Of a stretch of 48,190 nucleotides of DNA, positions 1,416 through 34,449 are shown in pieces (within the stretch, counting starts at the first letter, position 1; the number at the start of each line of letters is the position of its first letter). The stretch is from a virus. The translations under genes and the position numbers were made by a program. The notes beneath the pieces were generated by a model, which saw only the letters and a program-made list of their open reading frames with translations, did no database searches and was not told the origin of the DNA. Location of the stretch: the UHGV virus genome UHGV-0173119; one strand, written 5' to 3'.

Positions 1416-2462
1416 TTAAAATCCTTCAATTGGAGTTGGTTTATGTTCGGTTTTTTCTTCTTGCGGTTCTGGCTGCTGTGGTTTCGGTTTAGCCAGTTTT
1501 GCAGGGTTGAAATTATCCTGTGGAGTTATTACCACAGGAGATAATTGTTCATCATTGATGAAAGACTCAATGCGATCATATTCAGCGGCAGAAGCAGCGA
1601 GAGAAGGCCAGATTGCACGAATCTTATCTTTCAGGTTATCAGGTATTGACTTCGCCTCTTCCTTCAGGCCTTCCATGCCTTTTGCGGCAGAAAGCTGAAG
1701 TCGTGAGCGCCATGACTCAAACTCCTCGTCAATTTTAACGCCAGAGTCCACCCACTTGATGAGCCCTAGACCGTGAGCCTCTCCAATATAGCCATGACGA
1801 ACACTTTCACGACCAGACTCAAAGAAGATTGGGCGTAGTTCTTCTGGTAATTTTGTGAACTCCTGAATTTTGCCTCCATCGTGCATCATCATGCTCACGG
1901 TCATCTCGAACATGAAATCTTTCTCGCACACTGGCTGCAATCCAAGTGATACAGGCTCCTTCGGGTTCGCGAAATCAGTTTTCTGTCGGGCGCGAAGGCA
2001 GACAATGATATGCATATTGCTTTGCAGCATGGCATTCATGAACTTCTTGTGCTCAGCTTTGGCGCGCTTCCAGTCAGCCATCTTTTTGCCGTTAAGCAGC
2101 GGCTTCTCAGCAATCTCCGTGCAACTGCCTTCCCCTTCCCATTCGTGCGAACCTGAATCAATAACAAGAACTTTAACGCCAGCGGCCTGAAACTCTTCAA
2201 TGGCCTGACGGTAACGTGCAGGGCTGAATGGTGCATACATATCAGCGTGCAGAAATTTGCCATCAAGGATGTTTGAGTACAGGCGACCACGACCATTTTC
2301 AGTATCAAGGAATCCGATTTCTTCTGGTGAATCAACCATGCCTCTCGCCAGCTTAAGTGCGCTGTATGTTTTTCCGCTACCAGACTGGCCTGAAATACCG
2401 ATGACCACACGAGAACCGGAACGCTCTGCTGGCTTAATATTGAGAATACCCATTTGCATCAC
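1416..2462 (-). CDS. RecA-fold ATPase, Sak4/AAA_24-like ssDNA-annealing ATPase with C-terminal extension
   Basis: Walker A GISGQSGSGKT near N-terminus, Walker B-like VLVIDSGSHEWEG; located between RecB-like exonuclease and SSB. Confidence 0.75.
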   Translation of the reverse strand: MMQMGILNIKPAERSGSRVVIGISGQSGSGKTYSALKLARGMVDSPEEIGFLDTENGRGRLYSNILDGKFLHADMYAPFSPARYRQAIEEFQAAGVKVLVIDSGSHEWEGEGSCTEIAEKPLLNGKKMADWKRAKAEHKKFMNAMLQSNMHIIVCLRARQKTDFANPKEPVSLGLQPVCEKDFMFEMTVSMMMHDGGKIQEFTKLPEELRPIFFESGRESVRHGYIGEAHGLGLIKWVDSGVKIDEEFESWRSRLQLSAAKGMEGLKEEAKSIPDNLKDKIRAIWPSLAASAAEYDRIESFINDEQLSPVVITPQDNFNPAKLAKPKPQQPEPQEEKTEHKPTPIEGF

Positions 2463-2470
2463 CTCACTAA

Positions 2471-3415
2471 TTATAAATTAAATTGCTTCTTGAACCATTC
2501 AGGCGTTTCCATTTCGATGACAGGATTACCCATTGAATAACCCGGCCACGAATTGGCTTTTTTGCACGCCTTGTAAATTTCCATTGCACCGTTCAACTGA
2601 ATGCGACCGATTCGCAATTGCTCTTCAGTCAAACGAATCAAAGCAGTAATAAACGGAGATTTCTTTTCCTGAACTAAAAGGTTTACAGAACGCGGCGCAT
2701 GACCATATGCCGCAACAAACATATCGTGTTGCATAGCCATTTTCATAAAGTAGCCAAGTCGCGCAGCGTGACGGAAAAACTCTTCAGGCTTAGCGCTTAC
2801 CGCTGTCTTGTAGTCAATGATGTCACCACCTTTTGTCAGGCAGTCAAAACGAACCTTTGCTTTTTCTCCGTTAAGTTCACCGAGAATTGACACCTCGGAA
2901 TAAGCCCCAGAAAGCAGGCTGCTGTAATAGCTGTTTGCATGGATTACGGCGCGCATCTGCATGATGGCATCATAATCATCGCCTTCCAGCAAAATCCTGC
3001 CTTTCGCATTGAGTTCAGCAAACAGGCGCTCTTCATCATAGATTCTAACTGGCTCTCCAGTTGAGCGGATGATTTTAATCACCTCAGACTTTGTCTTGCC
3101 AGAAAGACCTTTAATTCCTCGCTCTTTTGCCCATGAGTTCATGTCGCTCACAGTAACAAGCAGTTCCGCGCCGAAATCCTCTTTCTTCGGCATGCGGGCA
3201 TATTCTGCCTCGAAGCGCTCAGGTTCAAGCAGAGCTGTATGGCTGCCAGTTCCGAAGACAAGAGCTTTTGACTGCTCATCTTCTTCGTCTTTGTAGCGCC
3301 ATGCTGCTGGGCATCTGTCAAGTATATTCCATAATCCAGAACCATTAATGTGATCTGTGTCAGCATGATAATCCTGATTGCTTAACTCGTTGTTGAAATA
3401 AACTCTCATCATCAC
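2471..3415 (-). CDS. PD-(D/E)XK RecB/Cas4-family exonuclease
   Basis: motifs VRFDCL and GGDIIDYKTA (D...D-x-K) typical of RecB-type nuclease domain. Confidence 0.75.
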   Translation of the reverse strand: MMMRVYFNNELSNQDYHADTDHINGSGLWNILDRCPAAWRYKDEEDEQSKALVFGTGSHTALLEPERFEAEYARMPKKEDFGAELLVTVSDMNSWAKERGIKGLSGKTKSEVIKIIRSTGEPVRIYDEERLFAELNAKGRILLEGDDYDAIMQMRAVIHANSYYSSLLSGAYSEVSILGELNGEKAKVRFDCLTKGGDIIDYKTAVSAKPEEFFRHAARLGYFMKMAMQHDMFVAAYGHAPRSVNLLVQEKKSPFITALIRLTEEQLRIGRIQLNGAMEIYKACKKANSWPGYSMGNPVIEMETPEWFKKQFNL

Positions 3416-4038
3416 TCTCCGTGGTTACAGAATTCTTTATGCATCTTTTCTCTGAATTTCATCACAGACAACCTCGCTCTCTCAATATCACTGAATAACC
3501 CAAGATGGTATCTTTTCCCGTTAACATCACAGTAAGCCTGCCACTTTTTAACCTGTTTTTGCCAATACACGCCTTTAACTCCTGATGTGTTATTTTTTGG
3601 TTTTTTGGCGTTATACTGGTTCTGCATATTTGTTGCGATTCTTAAGTTGCAAATCCTATTATCGTCACGCACACCATTGATGTGATCAATTTGACCTTCA
3701 GGCCAGAAACCATAATAAATCAACCATGCCAAGCGATGCGCGTAGTATCTTTTATTATTTATGCTTATCTCTATGTATCCGTTATGTTTTTTCCTTCCAG
3801 CAACACTACCCTTTCTTACACCTCCACCCGTCTTATTTCTAATGAAAAACCCTGTTTCAGGGTTGTAACTTAAGCTATCCAAAACAACATCACGAGGTAT
3901 TCTTTTTCTTCCGCCTATGGTGTTTGACTCTGCATTTCCCTGAGCAAAATCTTGCTTTTGCAGTTCCGATAAATTCATTTCCGCAAACCTCGCACTTCTT
4001 AACGGTGATAGCCATTTCTTAACCTCTATTGTAATCAT
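3412..4038 (-). CDS. HNH homing endonuclease with AP2 DNA-binding domain
   Basis: AHRLAWLIYYGFWPEGQIDHINGVRDDNRICNLR (HNH_3) followed by AP2-like SGVKGVYWQKQVKKWQAYCDVNGKRYHLGLFSDIERA; alternative start at MNLSELQ. Confidence 0.85.
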   Translation of the reverse strand: MITIEVKKWLSPLRSARFAEMNLSELQKQDFAQGNAESNTIGGRKRIPRDVVLDSLSYNPETGFFIRNKTGGGVRKGSVAGRKKHNGYIEISINNKRYYAHRLAWLIYYGFWPEGQIDHINGVRDDNRICNLRIATNMQNQYNAKKPKNNTSGVKGVYWQKQVKKWQAYCDVNGKRYHLGLFSDIERARLSVMKFREKMHKEFCNHGE

Positions 4039-4083
4039 TTACCGTTACATTGCAAGTAACTTTTATTTGTTACTAACAATACA

Positions 4084-4509
4084 TCAATCTACATCATTCA
4101 GCAAGCCAAAATAGAAAAGCGTGGCTTTTTTTAGTTCATCAAGACCGTAAGCGATGGCAGCATAATGACCAAGTCTGCACATCTCAGTTAATACAGTAGA
4201 TTGCTCCTTGCTCACTCTGCTTTTGCTTTTATCTCGGCGTTTTGCCTCAATCATTCCGCAGCTGTGCTTCACTCCCGGCGTCATTATTACATTGTCGCCT
4301 ATTCCAGTCTTAACGCCCATCTTCTGGCGCTTCAGCACAAACTGCACCCTGCTTGATGTGCCAGTTTCATTCGGGACGTGAAACCAGAGCACATCAGGGA
4401 AACAGTGTTGCATCCATAATCCATAACCCATCTGCTCAGTCTCTTCTTTCGGGCACTCGCCACGATAACCGCTATCAAATACCCATATACCGCTATCAAG
4501 CTGCTTCAC
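4084..4509 (-). CDS. VRR-NUC domain nuclease
   Basis: GIGDNVIM...GMIEAKRRDKSKSRVSKEQ motif (G-x-x-D ... E-x-K) of the VRR-NUC family. Confidence 0.7.
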   Translation of the reverse strand: MKQLDSGIWVFDSGYRGECPKEETEQMGYGLWMQHCFPDVLWFHVPNETGTSSRVQFVLKRQKMGVKTGIGDNVIMTPGVKHSCGMIEAKRRDKSKSRVSKEQSTVLTEMCRLGHYAAIAYGLDELKKATLFYFGLLNDVD

Positions 4510-4519
4510 TTTGTTCTCC

Positions 4520-6421
4520 TTAAAATTCTTTGCGGTGGATTATGTCACGGCCTTTATCGTTAAATCTATGCGTTATGCGCTTTGGCGCTCGGATAAGGCC
4601 AGTAAACGCCATAAATGCTTTTGCGCTGTGGCAATTCATAAGGTTATCGATTAGATTCCTGTCTGATACATGATTTAACAAACCTTTAATCTTGAACTGA
4701 TTTTTCAGATACTTCTCCTTACGATCAAAAGGATAAAATACCTCATTAGCCCATCCATCCTTCCCGTTCTCCTTCGTAATGAAATAACGATAAACAACAC
4801 CTTTTTCATCTTTCGTTAATTCAATCTTGAAGTCTTTAACTTCAGTCCATTCATTATCCGTATAAGCACGCTCATTCAATGCCGCATTCGGGTCGCGCAA
4901 AACATGATCGCAATGGCGGCAATAACGCGCAGTTGGGTCGTTTTTAGTGCCGCAACCATCATCAAAAATACGAATGCCATGCTTATCGAATCCGCAACGG
5001 ATATAACTGAAAAACTCTTCGCAACGACCATCTGGCGACAATGCGTCTTTGCCAATGCAGCGACGCGCATATGGGCTGTTCATGGTTCCGCACTTAGGAC
5101 ACGGAACCTGTTCACCACTTCGTTTTGAACGTTGCGCTTCAGCTTCTTCAAGGATTGGGTCTTCATATAGCTGACCAAGCTCAAACATCGTGCCTGAGAA
5201 ATCAAGAACCAGATGGTCTTCTTTATGATGCCCGGCATCAATTTGCTCTTTCTTCAGCAGGCGCATCCCGCGACCAAGCAACTGAACAAGAAGAGTGAGT
5301 GACATTATTTTTCGCAATATGCAACTCGTATCCCATAGCGGTATATTTACGCCAGTGGTAAGGGCGGCTATCTGGAACGTGAATTTTTTACGCCCGGTGT
5401 ATGCATCTTTTAGAGCCTTCCTTCTGGCTTTTGACCCCATATCTTCTGTAACTATTGAATAACTTCCTTCGGGTAGGTATTTTGCCGCCTCCTGACAATG
5501 TTTTTTACCAGCACATGTAATTAGCACTCCGTTCCTGTTTTTAGTCAATTCCATAACCTTGAGCATGATTTTCTGCGTCAACGTACCTTGCTCAAGAATT
5601 TCTTTCTGCATCTGCTTGAGCTGCTCGGCGGTAAAGTCCTGAGTACCATCAACATCTGAACCATGAAAATCTGAAAGGTCATAGTGCAGACTATCAACAT
5701 CATGAAGACCAAAAATTGTTGGAACAAGAAAACCGTTTTCAACCATGTACTTGGTGTCTATGTTGATAATCTCTTTCTTCCAGAAAGCGCCTTTTATTGA
5801 TGTAGTTCCGCGAAACGGTGAGCCTGTATAACCTATTATTCTCAACTCGTGGCCGTGATTATCTTTGCACCTTTTCATTAGCTCATTAATTATCACTGCA
5901 TACTGCGTATCACCATTATTAACAACATCAATGTCATTAACCATATGATTTTCATCGATAAGCAGGAATCTTGGGCAAAAGTCAGAGAGCGCACCTTTTG
6001 CAATAACATTCCCTGACTCATCCTTTTTATCAAACAAAGCATTTACAACAGTACCCTCAGAGCCACAGATTATTGGGTACGTAGAACTTTTCCTACCCAG
6101 CGAAGCACTGAATAGCGAGTTTCTTACCCCAAGCGACCATAGCTCTTCAGCATCTTGCTCCACTATTTCACCTTGTCTTGATAAAATCATCCCTGAATAG
6201 CCCATCTCCTGAAAACGCTTTGCTATCATGGCAATCATCAGTGACTTTCCGCTACCGACGCTCGCTGTTACATAACTCGGGCCAACATAATGACGAATCA
6301 CATCACCAGTTAACTTGTATATCAACCACTGATAGGGTCTTGGCTCGATATCACCAGTATCCAAGCAGGATTTCAGCAAGTTAATGTCAATCTCTGAAAT
6401 CATTTTGTCTATTTTATGCAT
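4520..6421 (-). CDS. DEXH-box superfamily II DNA helicase with C-terminal Cys-rich zinc-ribbon region
   Basis: motif I ASVGSGKS, motif II LLIDENH, C-terminal CPKCG...CRHCDH clusters. Confidence 0.85.
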   Translation of the reverse strand: MHKIDKMISEIDINLLKSCLDTGDIEPRPYQWLIYKLTGDVIRHYVGPSYVTASVGSGKSLMIAMIAKRFQEMGYSGMILSRQGEIVEQDAEELWSLGVRNSLFSASLGRKSSTYPIICGSEGTVVNALFDKKDESGNVIAKGALSDFCPRFLLIDENHMVNDIDVVNNGDTQYAVIINELMKRCKDNHGHELRIIGYTGSPFRGTTSIKGAFWKKEIINIDTKYMVENGFLVPTIFGLHDVDSLHYDLSDFHGSDVDGTQDFTAEQLKQMQKEILEQGTLTQKIMLKVMELTKNRNGVLITCAGKKHCQEAAKYLPEGSYSIVTEDMGSKARRKALKDAYTGRKKFTFQIAALTTGVNIPLWDTSCILRKIMSLTLLVQLLGRGMRLLKKEQIDAGHHKEDHLVLDFSGTMFELGQLYEDPILEEAEAQRSKRSGEQVPCPKCGTMNSPYARRCIGKDALSPDGRCEEFFSYIRCGFDKHGIRIFDDGCGTKNDPTARYCRHCDHVLRDPNAALNERAYTDNEWTEVKDFKIELTKDEKGVVYRYFITKENGKDGWANEVFYPFDRKEKYLKNQFKIKGLLNHVSDRNLIDNLMNCHSAKAFMAFTGLIRAPKRITHRFNDKGRDIIHRKEF

Positions 6422-6942
6422 TATTTCACCCTACCAAATTCACCATGATACTTTTTTGATGCTTCCGCATAAACCTTTGCTGCTTCTTCTTTTGTATCAT
6501 ATCTCCCTAGCCATATTTTTTTATTGTTTACATGTATAGAGCAAGTCCATTTTTTTGTTTGCTTGCAAAAACCGACCCCCTTTATACCTGACGTGTTATG
6601 GCTTGGAATCCTCATGTTTCTTAAGTTTCCATTAAAGTTTGTTTCTCTTAGGTTTTCTATCCTGTTGTTTAATCTATTTCCATCTTTATGGTCTATTATT
6701 AACTCAGGCCAATAACCATGAACTAACGCCCATATTATTCTATGAACCTTTATATCAACACCTAAAAAACCAACTTGAAGATATCCACTTACAGTCTTCG
6801 AGCCTGCAATAGCGCCACGTTTAACCCTGTTTGTTGTTGTTCTTTTCCATATGAGATTTATTCCGTCATATGAAAAATACTCCCGCAACGTGGATACTGG
6901 TATTGACTTTTCTTTTAGCTTCATCAATTCGAAATCATTCAC
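6421..6942 (-). CDS. HNH homing endonuclease with AP2 domain
   Basis: HRIIWALVHGYWPELIIDHKDGNRLNNRIENLR plus AP2-like IKGVGFCKQTKKWTCSIHVNNKKIWLGRYDTKEEAAKVY; GTG start at 6942 (alternative ATG 6924); overlaps helicase start. Confidence 0.85.
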   Translation of the reverse strand: MNDFELMKLKEKSIPVSTLREYFSYDGINLIWKRTTTNRVKRGAIAGSKTVSGYLQVGFLGVDIKVHRIIWALVHGYWPELIIDHKDGNRLNNRIENLRETNFNGNLRNMRIPSHNTSGIKGVGFCKQTKKWTCSIHVNNKKIWLGRYDTKEEAAKVYAEASKKYHGEFGRVK

Positions 6943-15907: not shown

Positions 15908-16102
15908 GTGATGATTATTGATGAAACTAAAAATTGCTATGAACTGCAAGTTAGTCATAGTTTTGGTGATTACCCTATTATTATGCTTACTTCATTCCGT
16001 GAAGGTGATGATGTTAATTCTATCGGCATCGACAAACATCAGGCCGCGCAGCTAATAGAAGTCCTGCAACGTTGGGTGAATGGTGAGGAGATTGAGCGAT
16101 GA
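15908..16102 (+). CDS. hypothetical protein (64 aa)
   Basis: ORF. Confidence 0.5.
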   Translation: MMIIDETKNCYELQVSHSFGDYPIIMLTSFREGDDVNSIGIDKHQAAQLIEVLQRWVNGEEIER

Positions 16103-16287
16103 GCGTTTATTTTATTCATGCTGAAGCCGTGCTAAGTAACGGTTGCGTTGCTGAGAAGATAGGAAGAATCGCAATTGCTGATAGCGCCGTGACGGCGTTC
16201 GATAAATTCTTTTCTGATGCCACTGTTACCAAGCTACGAGAGCAAGGTATTGATGTTGTCATCGATAAATTCGAAAAGGTGGAGTGA
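16099..16287 (+). CDS. hypothetical protein (62 aa)
   Basis: overlap coupling. Confidence 0.5.
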   Translation: MSVYFIHAEAVLSNGCVAEKIGRIAIADSAVTAFDKFFSDATVTKLREQGIDVVIDKFEKVE

Positions 16288-16478
16288 TGACAAGAAAAGA
16301 GGTTCACGAGTATTCTATTGTAGACAGGGAGCGAGTCGAAGATGTATGGATGAATCATGGATTACGCAGCAATCGCGCTAAATTGTATGCAAAATGCCAT
16401 CAAGTCGTAAGTGGCGACAGGATTGAGTGTTACGCGTTTAATCAGTGGATGAAGTCTGGTGTTGTGGATAAGGAATGA
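16284..16478 (+). CDS. hypothetical protein (64 aa)
   Basis: overlap coupling. Confidence 0.5.
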   Translation: MMTRKEVHEYSIVDRERVEDVWMNHGLRSNRAKLYAKCHQVVSGDRIECYAFNQWMKSGVVDKE

Positions 16479-31574: not shown

Positions 31575-31600
31575 AAAGCCCCGTGAAGGGGCTTTGGTTT
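31575..31600. terminator. bidirectional terminator AAGCCCC-gtgaa-GGGGCTT
   Basis: between convergent units. Confidence 0.85.
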
Positions 31601-31784
31601 ACTGACGATCCTGGTCTGAATAGAAGTTAACTAACTTAATGAAATCTCGCTTTCCGCTATGGTTTAAATAAAAACCAGCAATTTCATTAAACGCTTCGTT
31701 TGCCGCTCTTACGCTGCAACCCATGTTTAAAGCATCACGCGCAGCGATGGCAGCCAGCTTTGTTTTCTCTTTGATGTCCATCAA
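31599..31784 (-). CDS. hypothetical protein (61 aa)
   Basis: ATGA coupling with clamp-like gene. Confidence 0.45.
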   Translation of the reverse strand: MMDIKEKTKLAAIAARDALNMGCSVRAANEAFNEIAGFYLNHSGKRDFIKLVNFYSDQDRQ

Positions 31785-32320
31785 TCAATCCTCATCGGCA
31801 TAACAACAATCTTCGCAGTCTCACCAGATGGCGCGCTAAGACAGCAAACTGCGGCATTTTTGTTTCCATTCAGTTCAAATTTGACGCCACAGAATTTAGG
31901 ATTAAACAGCTTAGCCGCTTTCTCGATATCAACCAGATAGCCAGCATTGAAGCCAATTGCCTCTGCGGCTTTTGTTTCCTGCGGTATCACGCGGTCAATG
32001 TCAGGGAATCGGCCGTCAATCTCTTCGCAGATACCAGCGCCAACCATCACGCCATCTCCATCATGATACGTTGCAATTTTCGACTTTGTATCAATGATGG
32101 CGTACTCATAACGTTTTGTTGGAGATTTGCCAATCTTGATAATCACATTTTCTGTCAGCTTATTGTCATGGCTTCCACCAATGAATGCGCGACGACCATC
32201 AGTTGATGCAATGCGACCATCTGGCATGAAGCAGATTCCATTCAGGTAATATCGCACATCATTGCGAGCCTGAAATATTAATGCTGATTCAAGTAATAGT
32301 TTGCTGATTTTTAGTTTCAT
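31781..32320 (-). CDS. truncated DnaN-like (DNA polymerase III beta sliding clamp) homolog, ~domain II plus shortened domain III
   Basis: NDVRYYLNGICF/TDGRRAF, DGRFPDIDRVIP, KFCGVKF and C-terminal VVMPMR all align to E. coli beta clamp residues ~148-366; only 179 aa. Confidence 0.7.
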   Translation of the reverse strand: MKLKISKLLLESALIFQARNDVRYYLNGICFMPDGRIASTDGRRAFIGGSHDNKLTENVIIKIGKSPTKRYEYAIIDTKSKIATYHDGDGVMVGAGICEEIDGRFPDIDRVIPQETKAAEAIGFNAGYLVDIEKAAKLFNPKFCGVKFELNGNKNAAVCCLSAPSGETAKIVVMPMRID

Positions 32321-32493
32321 CACTTCACCTTAATCATGTGTTGTTTTGCAACCTTCATGCATTCTTCAAAAATGGCGCCCTTCTTTGCGCTCTGATTGCG
32401 CTTGTAATACTGAATTGCCGCATCAATTGCCATCTGGTCGATGTCCGGCAGCTTGGCACGAAGTTGTTTTTCGATGAATTGTTCTGGAGTCAT
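32320..32493 (-). CDS. hypothetical helical protein (57 aa, MTPEQFIEKQLRAKLPDIDQMAIDAAIQYYKRNQSAKKGAIFEECMKVAKQHMIKVK)
   Basis: TAATG and TGATG overlaps with flanking genes. Confidence 0.4.
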   Translation of the reverse strand: MTPEQFIEKQLRAKLPDIDQMAIDAAIQYYKRNQSAKKGAIFEECMKVAKQHMIKVK

Positions 32494-33293
32494 TAAACGG
32501 ACCTCATGAATGCTTTAATGAATTCTGCTGCGACTTGTGGAACTATGGCATTGCCATAACCGCGCAATCGTCCCACTCTTGCGGATACCCCATGAGTTGC
32601 CTCGCAAAATCCGCCTGGTATGACTCTAGTTTCTTTATCTGCTCCATGGTTGGGTTTCCATGAATCCCATAAACATGAAGCCACATCTGGCGATAAAGAG
32701 TATCGTTCCTGAATTTTCCATCCTTTCTGTAAAATGACTTGCTGAGATTCCCGTAATCCTTCCATCCTCGCGCCGTTGGTGTCGCCCATCCTCGAGCCAA
32801 AGATGATTCTTTTTCTTTCCTGTGGAGAACCGACGCTGCAAGCTGGCAATACTGCCGCCCCGCAGGTGTAGCCTTTTTCTTCCAGGTTAAGGAATACAAA
32901 GTCGAGCCAGTGCTTTGCAATTGCTGCCGCAACCTGCTCTCCAAACAGCAATTCAGGCTTGCACTCTCTGATGAGCCGGAGAAATACAGGGGCAAGGTGT
33001 CGTTCGTCATCAAATCCGCGAGACTGACCGGCAACGCTAAACGGCTGGCAAGGTGGTGATCCTGTCCAGAGTCGAGTGCTTTCTGGTATTCCTGCCAGCT
33101 GGAGTGCAAGGGGCCACCCTCCGATTCCGGCAAAGAAGTGACATTGTGTAAATCCTTCCAGGTCTGAAGGTGTGACTTCGGTAATTGATCGCTCATCGAC
33201 ATATCCGTAAGGAATTAGTTTATTGTTAATTAATTCGCGCAGCCATGCCGCTGCGCCCTTGTCCCACTCATTGTAATAGTGGACTATCATCAC
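32493..33293 (-). CDS. DNA (cytosine-5) methyltransferase
   Basis: motif I FFAGIGGW, motif IV GSPPCQPFS, motif VI-like LFGEQV. Confidence 0.85.
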   Translation of the reverse strand: MMIVHYYNEWDKGAAAWLRELINNKLIPYGYVDERSITEVTPSDLEGFTQCHFFAGIGGWPLALQLAGIPESTRLWTGSPPCQPFSVAGQSRGFDDERHLAPVFLRLIRECKPELLFGEQVAAAIAKHWLDFVFLNLEEKGYTCGAAVLPACSVGSPQERKRIIFGSRMGDTNGARMEGLRESQQVILQKGWKIQERYSLSPDVASCLWDSWKPNHGADKETRVIPGGFCEATHGVSARVGRLRGYGNAIVPQVAAEFIKAFMRSV

Positions 33294-34099
33294 ATCTTCT
33301 CCAGAATTGCCATAACCTCGTGAATGTCAGCAACAGGAATCTGGATAAATTCCTCATCCTCAGCCACCACATGACCAGCTGGAAGAATCACATGGTCTGC
33401 TGGCTTCAATAACTCAATCAGGCGGTCTACTGGCTTAATCTTTTTCGACTTCAGCACTTTCGCCGTGACCTTGTCTTTGCCTTGTGCTTTAGCCTCCTCA
33501 ACAGCCTCGTCGATAACTTTAACTGCATCGTCACCATGCTCACGCGTTACTGCTACGGCATTTGCATAGCTGATTTGCCCTGCGCTGATTCGCGCTTTTA
33601 CTTCCGCAGGAACATCACCAAGCGACAGGTGCATTTGCACGTCAGACACTGAGCGACCTACCTTCTTGGCGATTTCTTCATTCGTCCAGCCAAAACCTTT
33701 CAGTCGCGTATAAGCCTTTGCGCGTTCAAATGGGTCAAGCTGCTTTCCCTGGCTGGATGACACCATGAAGGCGATTTTATCTGCCTCATCGCCAGTGAAG
33801 TCCTTACACTCAATGCGAACGATTGGTGCACCACGCTCAATGGCGCGCAATGCGCCGAGATAGCGATGCTGACCATCAAGAATGCGGATTCCATTCTCGT
33901 CAGGAATAACTGTTAATGCTGGTAATGGCTGGCCTGACTCCCAGCACTGAGCGAAATACTCCACATGCTGCTCATCTGCTTCACGGATGTTATATCCCGG
34001 CTCCAGATAGATTTGCTCCACTGGCACGAGATAGGTTTTGTTAACAGCGATACCGTTGCGCGTTTCTTTGTCTGAATAGATTTTGCTTAGTGTTTTCAT
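33290..34099 (-). CDS. ParB-like nuclease domain protein
   Basis: ParB/Srx N-terminal motif region (YLEPGYNIRE...ILDGQHRYLGALRA). Confidence 0.8.
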   Translation of the reverse strand: MKTLSKIYSDKETRNGIAVNKTYLVPVEQIYLEPGYNIREADEQHVEYFAQCWESGQPLPALTVIPDENGIRILDGQHRYLGALRAIERGAPIVRIECKDFTGDEADKIAFMVSSSQGKQLDPFERAKAYTRLKGFGWTNEEIAKKVGRSVSDVQMHLSLGDVPAEVKARISAGQISYANAVAVTREHGDDAVKVIDEAVEEAKAQGKDKVTAKVLKSKKIKPVDRLIELLKPADHVILPAGHVVAEDEEFIQIPVADIHEVMAILEKM

Positions 34100-34102
34100 T
34101 GT

Positions 34103-34381
34103 TTATTCCTCATCACCCTGAAAAATGCCGCCAAACTCTTCAACCAACTCATCAATACATTCGTCCGCCTCGGCGCAATTACCAGCGGCGCTCAGCAGAA
34201 TATCAACTGCCTCATCATCAGGAATGTTGATTGCTGAGAAGAACTCAACAATGCACATTTTCACAACCTGATATTCACCTTCTGTCTGGCAGGATGCGAA
34301 ACTGCAAGCGACCGCATCAATCAGCTTGGCTTTGTCATCACTTGGATTATCAATATCAAACATTTCCATCACCTCTAACAT
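34103..34381 (-). CDS. small highly acidic protein (92 aa, ~24 Asp/Glu vs 3 Lys); candidate DNA-mimic anti-restriction protein
   Basis: composition; first gene of operon with MTase/ParB. Confidence 0.5.
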   Translation of the reverse strand: MLEVMEMFDIDNPSDDKAKLIDAVACSFASCQTEGEYQVVKMCIVEFFSAINIPDDEAVDILLSAAGNCAEADECIDELVEEFGGIFQGDEE

Positions 34382-34391
34382 TTATTGTTGT

Positions 34392-34449
34392 TTCTACGTC
34401 ATTACTATAAACACCTCACCAATCTACGTCAACAGGAATATGCTAAAAT
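34392..34449. promoter_or_regulatory. divergent promoter region: plus-strand extended -10 TGcTAAAAT with AATCTACGTCAA at -35; minus-strand TTGACG-17-TATAGT
   Basis: two motif copies (34392-34401, 34421-34432). Confidence 0.55.

Follow-up and report, generated by a model that had tools for sequence, protein, structure and literature searches.

A short phage homolog of the beta sliding clamp that retains the partner-binding pocket and lacks the ring interface

The beta sliding clamp (DnaN) is a hub of bacterial replication and repair and a target for antibiotics. Proteins that carry a clamp-binding motif (CBM), among them the alpha, epsilon and delta subunits of DNA polymerase III (Pol III), Hda, Pol II, Pol IV and Pol V, and MutS and MutL, dock in one pocket of the clamp. 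In this study, we focused on a gene for a short DnaN-like protein (179 amino acids plus stop; positions 31781-32320, minus strand) in the UHGV virus genome UHGV-0173119. The whole stretch that was analysed, 48,190 nucleotides long and called the window here, is the genome of a Skatevirus-like siphophage whose nearest relative, Escherichia phage ClaudiaMuster_Bas77, is ~93% identical to it across the region. The protein is a clamp homolog of about one and a half domains, in which the CBM pocket is kept and the known ring interface is missing.

The closest described proteins are short phage homologs of the Pol III beta subunit. Five of them were reported by Kazlauskas and Venclovas in 2011 and described as spanning 'the second and third domains' (PMC3201878); in the window protein only half of the third is found. 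Bcep43 gp15 is annotated as a "DNA Pol III b subunit fragment" and SO-1 gp07 as a "possible moron", and the family is catalogued as PHROG 3007. The window protein matches phrog_3007 over its full length with E=8.4e-62 (residues 1-178 against profile positions 1-186 of 190) and shares the length and the fold of these proteins; nothing sets it apart from them. The family is thus already known, since it was noted in 2011 and catalogued, and the sequence observation is not new. An earlier note on this DNA had held that such two-domain proteins are not a described phage family; the 2011 report, the Bcep43 gp15 annotation, PHROG 3007 and the 278 phage records described below contradict this. No functional study of the short DnaN form was found in our literature searches.

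Compared with the beta clamp of E. coli (366 amino acids; PDB 1mmi/2pol), the phage protein retains the CBM pocket, with 15 of its 18 residues identical. Unlike that clamp, it is only 179 amino acids long, lacks domain I, beta residues 251-314 and one of the channel helices, has a basic isoelectric point (pI), stays below the curated family cut-offs and cannot form a beta2 ring. Reportedly, a shorter E. coli form named beta* is induced by ultraviolet light, starts at the internal Met135, consists of domains II and III and acts as a clamp. The phage protein resembles beta* in its N-terminal truncation from nearly the same start (window residue 7 aligns to beta 136); however, beta* (232 amino acids) keeps all of domains II and III, whereas the phage protein loses 64 more residues, including the interface. 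The non-ring processivity factors of herpesviruses, UL42, UL44, BMRF1 and PF-8, differ in having two full domains and in binding their own viral polymerase and, directly, DNA, whereas the window phage has no polymerase. Under the reading that we prefer, the protein is like gp168 of Staphylococcus phage Twort (PDB 7evp), as a case of phage-encoded interference with the host clamp network. However, gp168, small and unrelated, binds the clamp itself, whereas the window protein is a clamp derivative and would bind the clamp's partners.

Homology to the clamp and the retained pocket

Searches with phmmer against all PDB chains matched the protein to enterobacterial beta sliding clamps (E=1e-10) in two stretches, residues 7-154 against beta 136-289 and residues 118-178 against beta 313-366. 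A profile of 81 diverse family members matched E. coli beta with E=5e-31; the E. coli sequence used here was checked against 25 residue numbers in a review (PMC11139829). The window protein missed the curated cut-offs (13.3 bits against 27 for Pfam DNA_pol3_beta_3, and 29.7 against 137.65 for TIGR00663), and the DNA_pol3_beta_2 cut-off is passed by some other family members. AlphaFold2, given an alignment of 50%-cluster representatives (a second homolog search returned close relatives only), produced a model with a pLDDT of 96.6 and a pTM of 0.91, and structure comparison of this model gave a DNA clamp fold with native geometry. The sequence comparisons are strong evidence that the phage protein is homologous to the beta sliding clamp, and the model predicts that it adopts the clamp fold.

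The motif matches that the earlier note had quoted are correct: NDVRYYLNG and TDGRRAF correspond to beta 149-157 and 172-178, and DGRFPDIDRVIP to beta 238-249, and the alignment likewise supports KFCGVKF (beta 277-283) and the C-terminal VVMPMR, which is identical to beta 360-365. The whole-length match that it saw to the C-terminal ~220 residues of beta holds for beta ~130-250 and ~315-366, but not for beta 251-314, which has no counterpart. The likeness of residues 1-12 to the N-terminus of beta is weak and is explained by the internal domain repeat, as this segment aligns within domain II, to its first strand and helix.

Both the alignment and the family profile agree with the note that the protein is a DnaN homolog cut short, lacking domain I and part of domain III. 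The protein consists of ~1.5 domains, namely domain II and one beta-alpha-beta-beta-beta motif of domain III; domain I and the first motif of domain III (beta 251-314) are absent. Judging from the alignments and the secondary structure of the AlphaFold2 model, residues 1-101 (32018-32320, minus strand) are the counterpart of domain II (beta ~130-238). They are followed in the alignments by the DGRFPDIDRVIP connector at residues 102-117 (31970-32017, minus strand; beta 238-253). The single beta-alpha-beta-beta-beta motif, residues 118-179 (31784-31969, minus strand), was assigned as the functional counterpart of beta 315-366 from the hidden Markov model (HMM), Foldseek and conservation. HMM nodes 122-180 align to beta 315-366, the Foldseek alignment of the model reaches the C-terminus of beta over ~260 alignment columns, and the motif begins with IGFN..Y and ends with VVMPMR, like the last one of domain III. 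Its matches to both halves of domain III are what an internal repeat would be expected to give. The model shows a loop of 9 residues (64-72) in place of the second helix of domain II. The loss of this helix, one of the two that line the channel in domain II, is found in the ~180-residue members; the helix is seemingly kept in some longer ones, in which no fused extra domains were found.

The beta dimer interface joins I78, F106 and R103 with I272, L273, E298 and E304 of the opposite side (PMC11139829), and all of these residues fall in regions that are absent from the phage protein. A conventional beta2 ring is excluded because domain I and beta 251-314 are missing, and the note was right in that no head-to-tail beta dimer can form. 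Its suggestion of a PCNA-like trimer of two-domain subunits fails on the same anatomy: a PCNA-type subunit has two complete clamp domains, and here each protein has one full domain and a half domain. When E. coli beta was searched against the whole window by tblastn, it matched this open reading frame (ORF) alone; neither a domain I remnant nor another dnaN fragment was found elsewhere, and a broken full-length dnaN was rejected as an explanation.

In the clamp fold, the pocket straddles the junction at which the fourth strand of domain II pairs with the last strand of domain III. The short protein is near the minimal piece able to carry the pocket, since the pocket spans the junction of the two pieces that are retained. 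We defined the pocket as the 18 residues of CBM subsites I and II listed in a review (PMC11139829). An aligned position is present in the phage protein for all 18. In domain II, R23, L26, T40, G42, R43, R44 and A45 correspond to beta R152, L155, T172, G174, H175, R176 and L177; in the connector, P106, R110 and V111 correspond to P242, R246 and V247; and in the C-terminal motif, N125, Y128, V172, M174, P175, M176 and R177 correspond to N320, Y323, V360 and M362-R365. Identity of the window protein to E. coli beta is 83% in the pocket (15/18) versus 24% at the 140 other aligned positions. Among 133 family representatives, mean identity to E. coli beta is 72% in the pocket and 20% elsewhere, and of the 15 family columns with the highest conservation, 10 are pocket residues (Fisher p=5e-8; Mann-Whitney p=1e-6). 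In beta numbering, R152 is conserved in 97% of the family, L155 in 93%, T172 in 92%, G174 in 99%, H175 in 89%, P242 in 99%, Y323 in 90%, M362 in 92%, P363 in 88% and R365 in 84%. The polar residues that contact the ligand (R152, H175, Y323 and R365) are among the most conserved.

The ratio of nonsynonymous to synonymous substitution rates (dN/dS) was 0.09-0.15 among four Skatevirus orthologs, which indicates at the sequence level that the gene is maintained under purifying selection. The pI is 8.5 for the window protein and 8.25 as the family median, compared with 5.25 for beta. Such a shift toward a basic pI has been linked with clamp homologs that bind DNA and do not form rings (PMC3201878).

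Family distribution, dispensability and genomic context

The protein is encoded in 278 phage records found by tblastn, and in 272 of them the match is near full length, covering at least 80% of the query. Host genera include Salmonella, Escherichia, Klebsiella, Vibrio, Acinetobacter, Proteus, Burkholderia, Pseudomonas and Pantoea, and many deposited Skatevirus genomes carry orthologs with 87-94% identity. An exhaustive HMMER search of 1.8 billion cluster representatives (50% identity clusters) returned 160 clusters at E<=1e-10, and the best 150 are nearly all 169-222 amino acids long. BFVD holds many viral models of 163-250 amino acids with the same fold (TM up to 0.89).

Many depositors annotate the protein as "DNA polymerase III beta subunit" or sliding clamp. 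The label of PHROG 3007 is 'RusA-like Holliday junction resolvase', and it has been propagated into RefSeq and into the Pharokka annotations of many phages. No RusA match was found in Pfam even at E<=10 and the fold is that of a clamp, so a RusA-like resolvase was rejected; the RusA label on PHROG 3007 is a systematic mis-annotation.

A genome-reduction study of Skatevirus seszw by the CiPGr method deposited the genomes of mutants, and its authors regarded genes missing from isolated mutants as non-essential (PMC9825161). We read the dispensability of the seszw ortholog, gene 16, from these deposited genomes. The coat gene is present at >=99% identity in 72 records and gene 16 in 47, and at least 25 sequenced viable CiPGr seszw mutants have the coat gene and lack gene 16. 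In the two mutants that were inspected, seszw_150S and seszw_290L (MZ375324 and MZ375351), genes 16 and 17 are gone, and the ParB-like gene 18 and gene 19 are kept; the small gene 17 occupies the place of a 57-residue ORF of the window and is its positional counterpart. Because viable seszw mutants lack the ortholog, an essential replication role is unlikely, at least in that host and for that copy. The DnaN-like gene is an accessory gene. The ParB-like gene and the small gene upstream of it (33290-34381 in the window; 2890-3981 and 2936-4027 in the mutant records) were retained in the inspected mutants that had lost the DnaN-like gene, and these two may be more important than the clamp homolog for the growth of the phage.

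The replication genes of the window phage comprise SSB, exonuclease VIII, two helicases and a primase; no DNA polymerase gene was found in it or in LPST10. Kagunavirus and Dhillonvirus encode their own PolA, and Skatevirus does not. A link between the short DnaN gene and the absence of a phage polymerase was considered and rejected, as the gene occurs both with PolA and without any polymerase. In Dhillonvirus SO-1, Naesvirus Bcep43, Kagunavirus fFiEco02 and a Jersey-like phage, it stands alone on the opposite strand within the head module. In four unrelated genera, the gene is a single opposite-strand insert in nearly the same place, between head-morphogenesis or portal genes and scaffold or capsid genes (3992-4510, 3998-4579, 3962-4483 and 3468-3983 in their own records), which is a recurrent insertion site. 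Elsewhere the context differs: in Escherichia phage Sortsne, the gene has a methyltransferase gene on either side and adjoins primase and helicase genes, and in Pseudoalteromonas phage C7 it adjoins a primase-polymerase gene. No neighbour gene conserved across genera was found. The lack of a fixed phage partner and of any tie to polymerase content points to a host target.

A strict CBM pattern gave no match at the termini of phage replication proteins. A relaxed pattern gave scattered, non-conserved matches only, in the Dam proteins of Sortsne and SO-1 and in a 348-residue protein of the window, which are suggestive. Sortsne Dam (3309-3959), encoded directly upstream of the short DnaN gene, ends in ...TQAEMIFDGKTLI, in which QAEMIF resembles a CBM (compare QADMF of Pol III alpha), and SO-1 Dam (15934-16419) has QIEIM near its C-terminus. 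These motifs could hint at a methyltransferase partner or could have arisen by chance. The 348-residue protein of the window (1416-2462, minus strand; phrog_1366 with a weak Sak4-like match) begins with MQMGIL, in which the N-terminal QMGIL fits the relaxed pattern and is placed like the N-terminal motif of Hda. In LPST10, which has an annotated Erf-like single-stranded DNA annealing protein, the same scan found no such N-terminal motif.

The minus-strand operon of the window

The DnaN-like gene belongs to a minus-strand operon whose genes overlap or abut and which lies as a whole amid plus-strand capsid and head-tail genes. ORF order and profile matches confirm the arrangement given in the earlier note, in which the operon holds a C5-methyltransferase, a ParB-like protein and a small acidic protein. 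The first gene encodes the small acidic protein (34103-34381, minus strand; 92 amino acids; phrog_14587, E=1.5e-46), for which 'anti-restriction protein' is a database label only. It is followed on the same strand by the gene for the ParB-like protein (33290-34099; 269 amino acids), which by profile matches has a DGQHR motif and an HTH_ParB/KorB domain, and by that for the C5 cytosine DNA methyltransferase (32493-33293; 266 amino acids; Pfam DNA_methylase 8e-22, phrog_363 3e-73). Next comes the 57-residue ORF (32320-32493, minus strand), which matches phrog_4439 of unknown function. The ATG of the DnaN-like gene at 32320 overlaps the stop of this ORF in an ATGA, by which the two are translationally coupled, and its own TGA (31783-31781) overlaps the start of a 61-residue ORF (31599-31784, minus strand), the last gene of the operon, for which profile searches gave no family match.

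A sigma70-type promoter-like site (TTGACG-17-TATAGT, 10/12; 34404-34432, minus strand) was found by consensus scan directly upstream of the operon; with 2 sites in the region where chance alone would give 4.5, the operon site is backed by its position and not by statistics. At the other end, 4 nucleotides past the last ORF, the scan found an intrinsic-terminator-like hairpin with a stem of 8 base pairs (5 GC pairs) followed by a T-run (31575-31595, minus strand).

The C5-methyltransferase gene is a variable cassette. It is present in the window and in Bas77 and absent at the same position in LPST10, which has a small ORF there, and in seszw, where the ParB-like gene directly precedes the small ORF in front of the DnaN-like gene. 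A 219-residue ORF (32543-33202, minus strand) lies in an alternative frame wholly within the methyltransferase gene and is probably spurious. Outside the operon, in the block of replication genes, two HNH homing-endonuclease genes (3412-4038 and 6421-6942, minus strand; both phrog_99) flank a phrog_16 helicase gene, the downstream one being separated from it by a 141-residue ORF. The HNH genes of relatives sit at other positions.

Possible roles of the short clamp homolog

We propose that the protein is a non-ring pocket module that is expressed from the sigma70-type promoter and binds CBM-type peptides as a decoy or an adaptor; our own estimate of the probability of this reading is about 0.45. 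In such a mechanism, the host RNA polymerase would transcribe the gene, and the protein, a stable accessory product of clamp ancestry, would not encircle DNA as a beta2-type ring but act instead as a soluble pocket module. By binding CBM peptides it might, as a decoy, titrate host clamp partners away from beta or, alternatively, as an adaptor, bring a CBM partner to a phage process. Its role would be that of a fitness or host-modulation factor and not that of a core replication protein. The pocket that is kept and selectively conserved, the missing ring parts, the basic pI, the purifying selection and the dispensability support this reading, and the occurrence of the gene in phages both with PolA and without a polymerase supports a host target. 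Candidates for capture by a decoy would be the clamp-loader delta subunit, Pol III alpha and epsilon, Hda, translesion polymerases and MutS/MutL. A wider version is put forward only tentatively, namely that in phages of many Proteobacteria the protein mimics the pocket as a non-ring 'clamp decoy', by which host CBM proteins are captured or redirected so as to rewire host replication and repair or to evade a clamp-dependent host process. Two of the three mechanisms offered in the earlier note are contradicted by the anatomy or by selection. The idea of a hijacker of the clamp network stays plausible, via the peptide-binding pocket rather than the ring interface.

Several points weigh against the pocket module. 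Its main weakness is the phage's own need for Pol III and beta: a general CBM decoy should hurt the phage too, because the phage apparently depends on host Pol III and beta (it has no polymerase gene), so that selectivity or low dosage must be assumed. The near-invariant H175 of beta (89% of the family), which bridges the two pocket subsites, is R in the window protein, and L177 is A. Codon 43 of the window gene (32192-32194) reads Arg, and all close relatives inspected have His at this position. The copy in seszw and Skate (5001-5537 in its own record) carries Y25C and R177L at near-invariant positions, and from these sequences the constraint on the pocket may be relaxed in parts of Skatevirus. 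The dispensability in seszw, correspondingly, is that of a possibly weakened copy in one laboratory host. Because the pocket lies at a junction, part of its conservation (G174, P242, L155, M362 and P363) could represent packing, and in genuine beta clamps, too, the pocket motifs are the best conserved. The missing half-domain should expose a surface, and the self-association that may follow is left unexplained. Finally, the binding of CBM peptides by the phage protein is something that we infer from sequence.

It is unlikely, in our judgement, that the protein is a self-assembling alternative clamp, in which subunits of three half-domains oligomerise and the assembly serves host Pol III or a phage PolA as a processivity factor or toolbelt. 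One domain could, for example, be rebuilt from two C-terminal half-domains, and four subunits would give the 12 motifs of a ring. The predicted clamp fold with native geometry, the retention of the pocket that polymerases use and the half-domain, which by the fold should expose a surface normally covered by a partner motif, are all consistent with such assembly; beta* is reported to act as a clamp, and many depositors annotate a sliding clamp. However, domain II of the model has one channel-lining helix instead of two, the known ring-interface residues are deleted and the basic pI is unlike that of ring clamps. No clamp-loader gene is present, and the gene is dispensable in seszw, occurs with and without a phage polymerase and is usually a lone opposite-strand gene among head genes rather than among replication genes. 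A UL42-like tether is a shade more doubtful. It would be a monomer that binds DNA by a basic face and holds a polymerase or a CBM enzyme, such as a DNA methyltransferase, on phage DNA without a loader. The conserved pocket would suit this role, as would the pI, which is a marker of non-ring DNA-binding homologs (PMC3201878). The Sortsne gene between two methyltransferase genes, with the CBM-like QAEMIF at the end of the upstream Dam, and the C5-methyltransferase in the operon of the window point to an enzyme that could be held. In LPST10, seszw and Kagunavirus, however, no methyltransferase adjoins the gene, the CBM-like motifs were matched by a relaxed pattern only and could be due to chance, and the basic DNA-binding face is conjectured from the overall pI.

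A clamp poison is improbable. In this model, the free edge strand of domain II would mimic the edge of domain I, cap a host beta monomer and block ring closure. The outer edge of domain II should be unpaired in the fold since domain I is absent, and phages are known to target the clamp, as Twort gp168 does. However, conservation is concentrated in the pocket and not in the edge strand, and a phage without a polymerase gene presumably needs the host clamp. This route is the reverse of that in the earlier note, in which the protein paired with domain I of host beta through a retained domain III interface; the latter fails, as the part of domain III with I272, L273, E298 and E304 is deleted. Least credible by far is a non-functional remnant of a captured dnaN, or else a RusA-like Holliday junction resolvase. 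The truncated architecture and the dispensability in seszw would agree with a remnant, and the PHROG 3007 label with a resolvase. However, decay of the gene, which the earlier note had also suggested, is excluded by the dN/dS, and the conserved pocket, the length maintained across ~150 divergent clusters and the confidently predicted fold stand against a remnant, as does the search of the window, which showed no other dnaN fragment. The RusA alternative has no Pfam match to support it.

The family is widespread (278 phage records and ~150 divergent clusters) and mislabelled in current annotation pipelines. A pocket that is kept while the ring is lost is a conservation pattern that gives a specific, testable hypothesis. 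If the pocket module is real, it would be a new route by which phages manipulate the host replisome and the first case of a virus copying the pocket of a hub instead of targeting the hub. This naturally minimised and probably monomeric module would then also be a compact tool to probe or block the interactions between the clamp and its partners.

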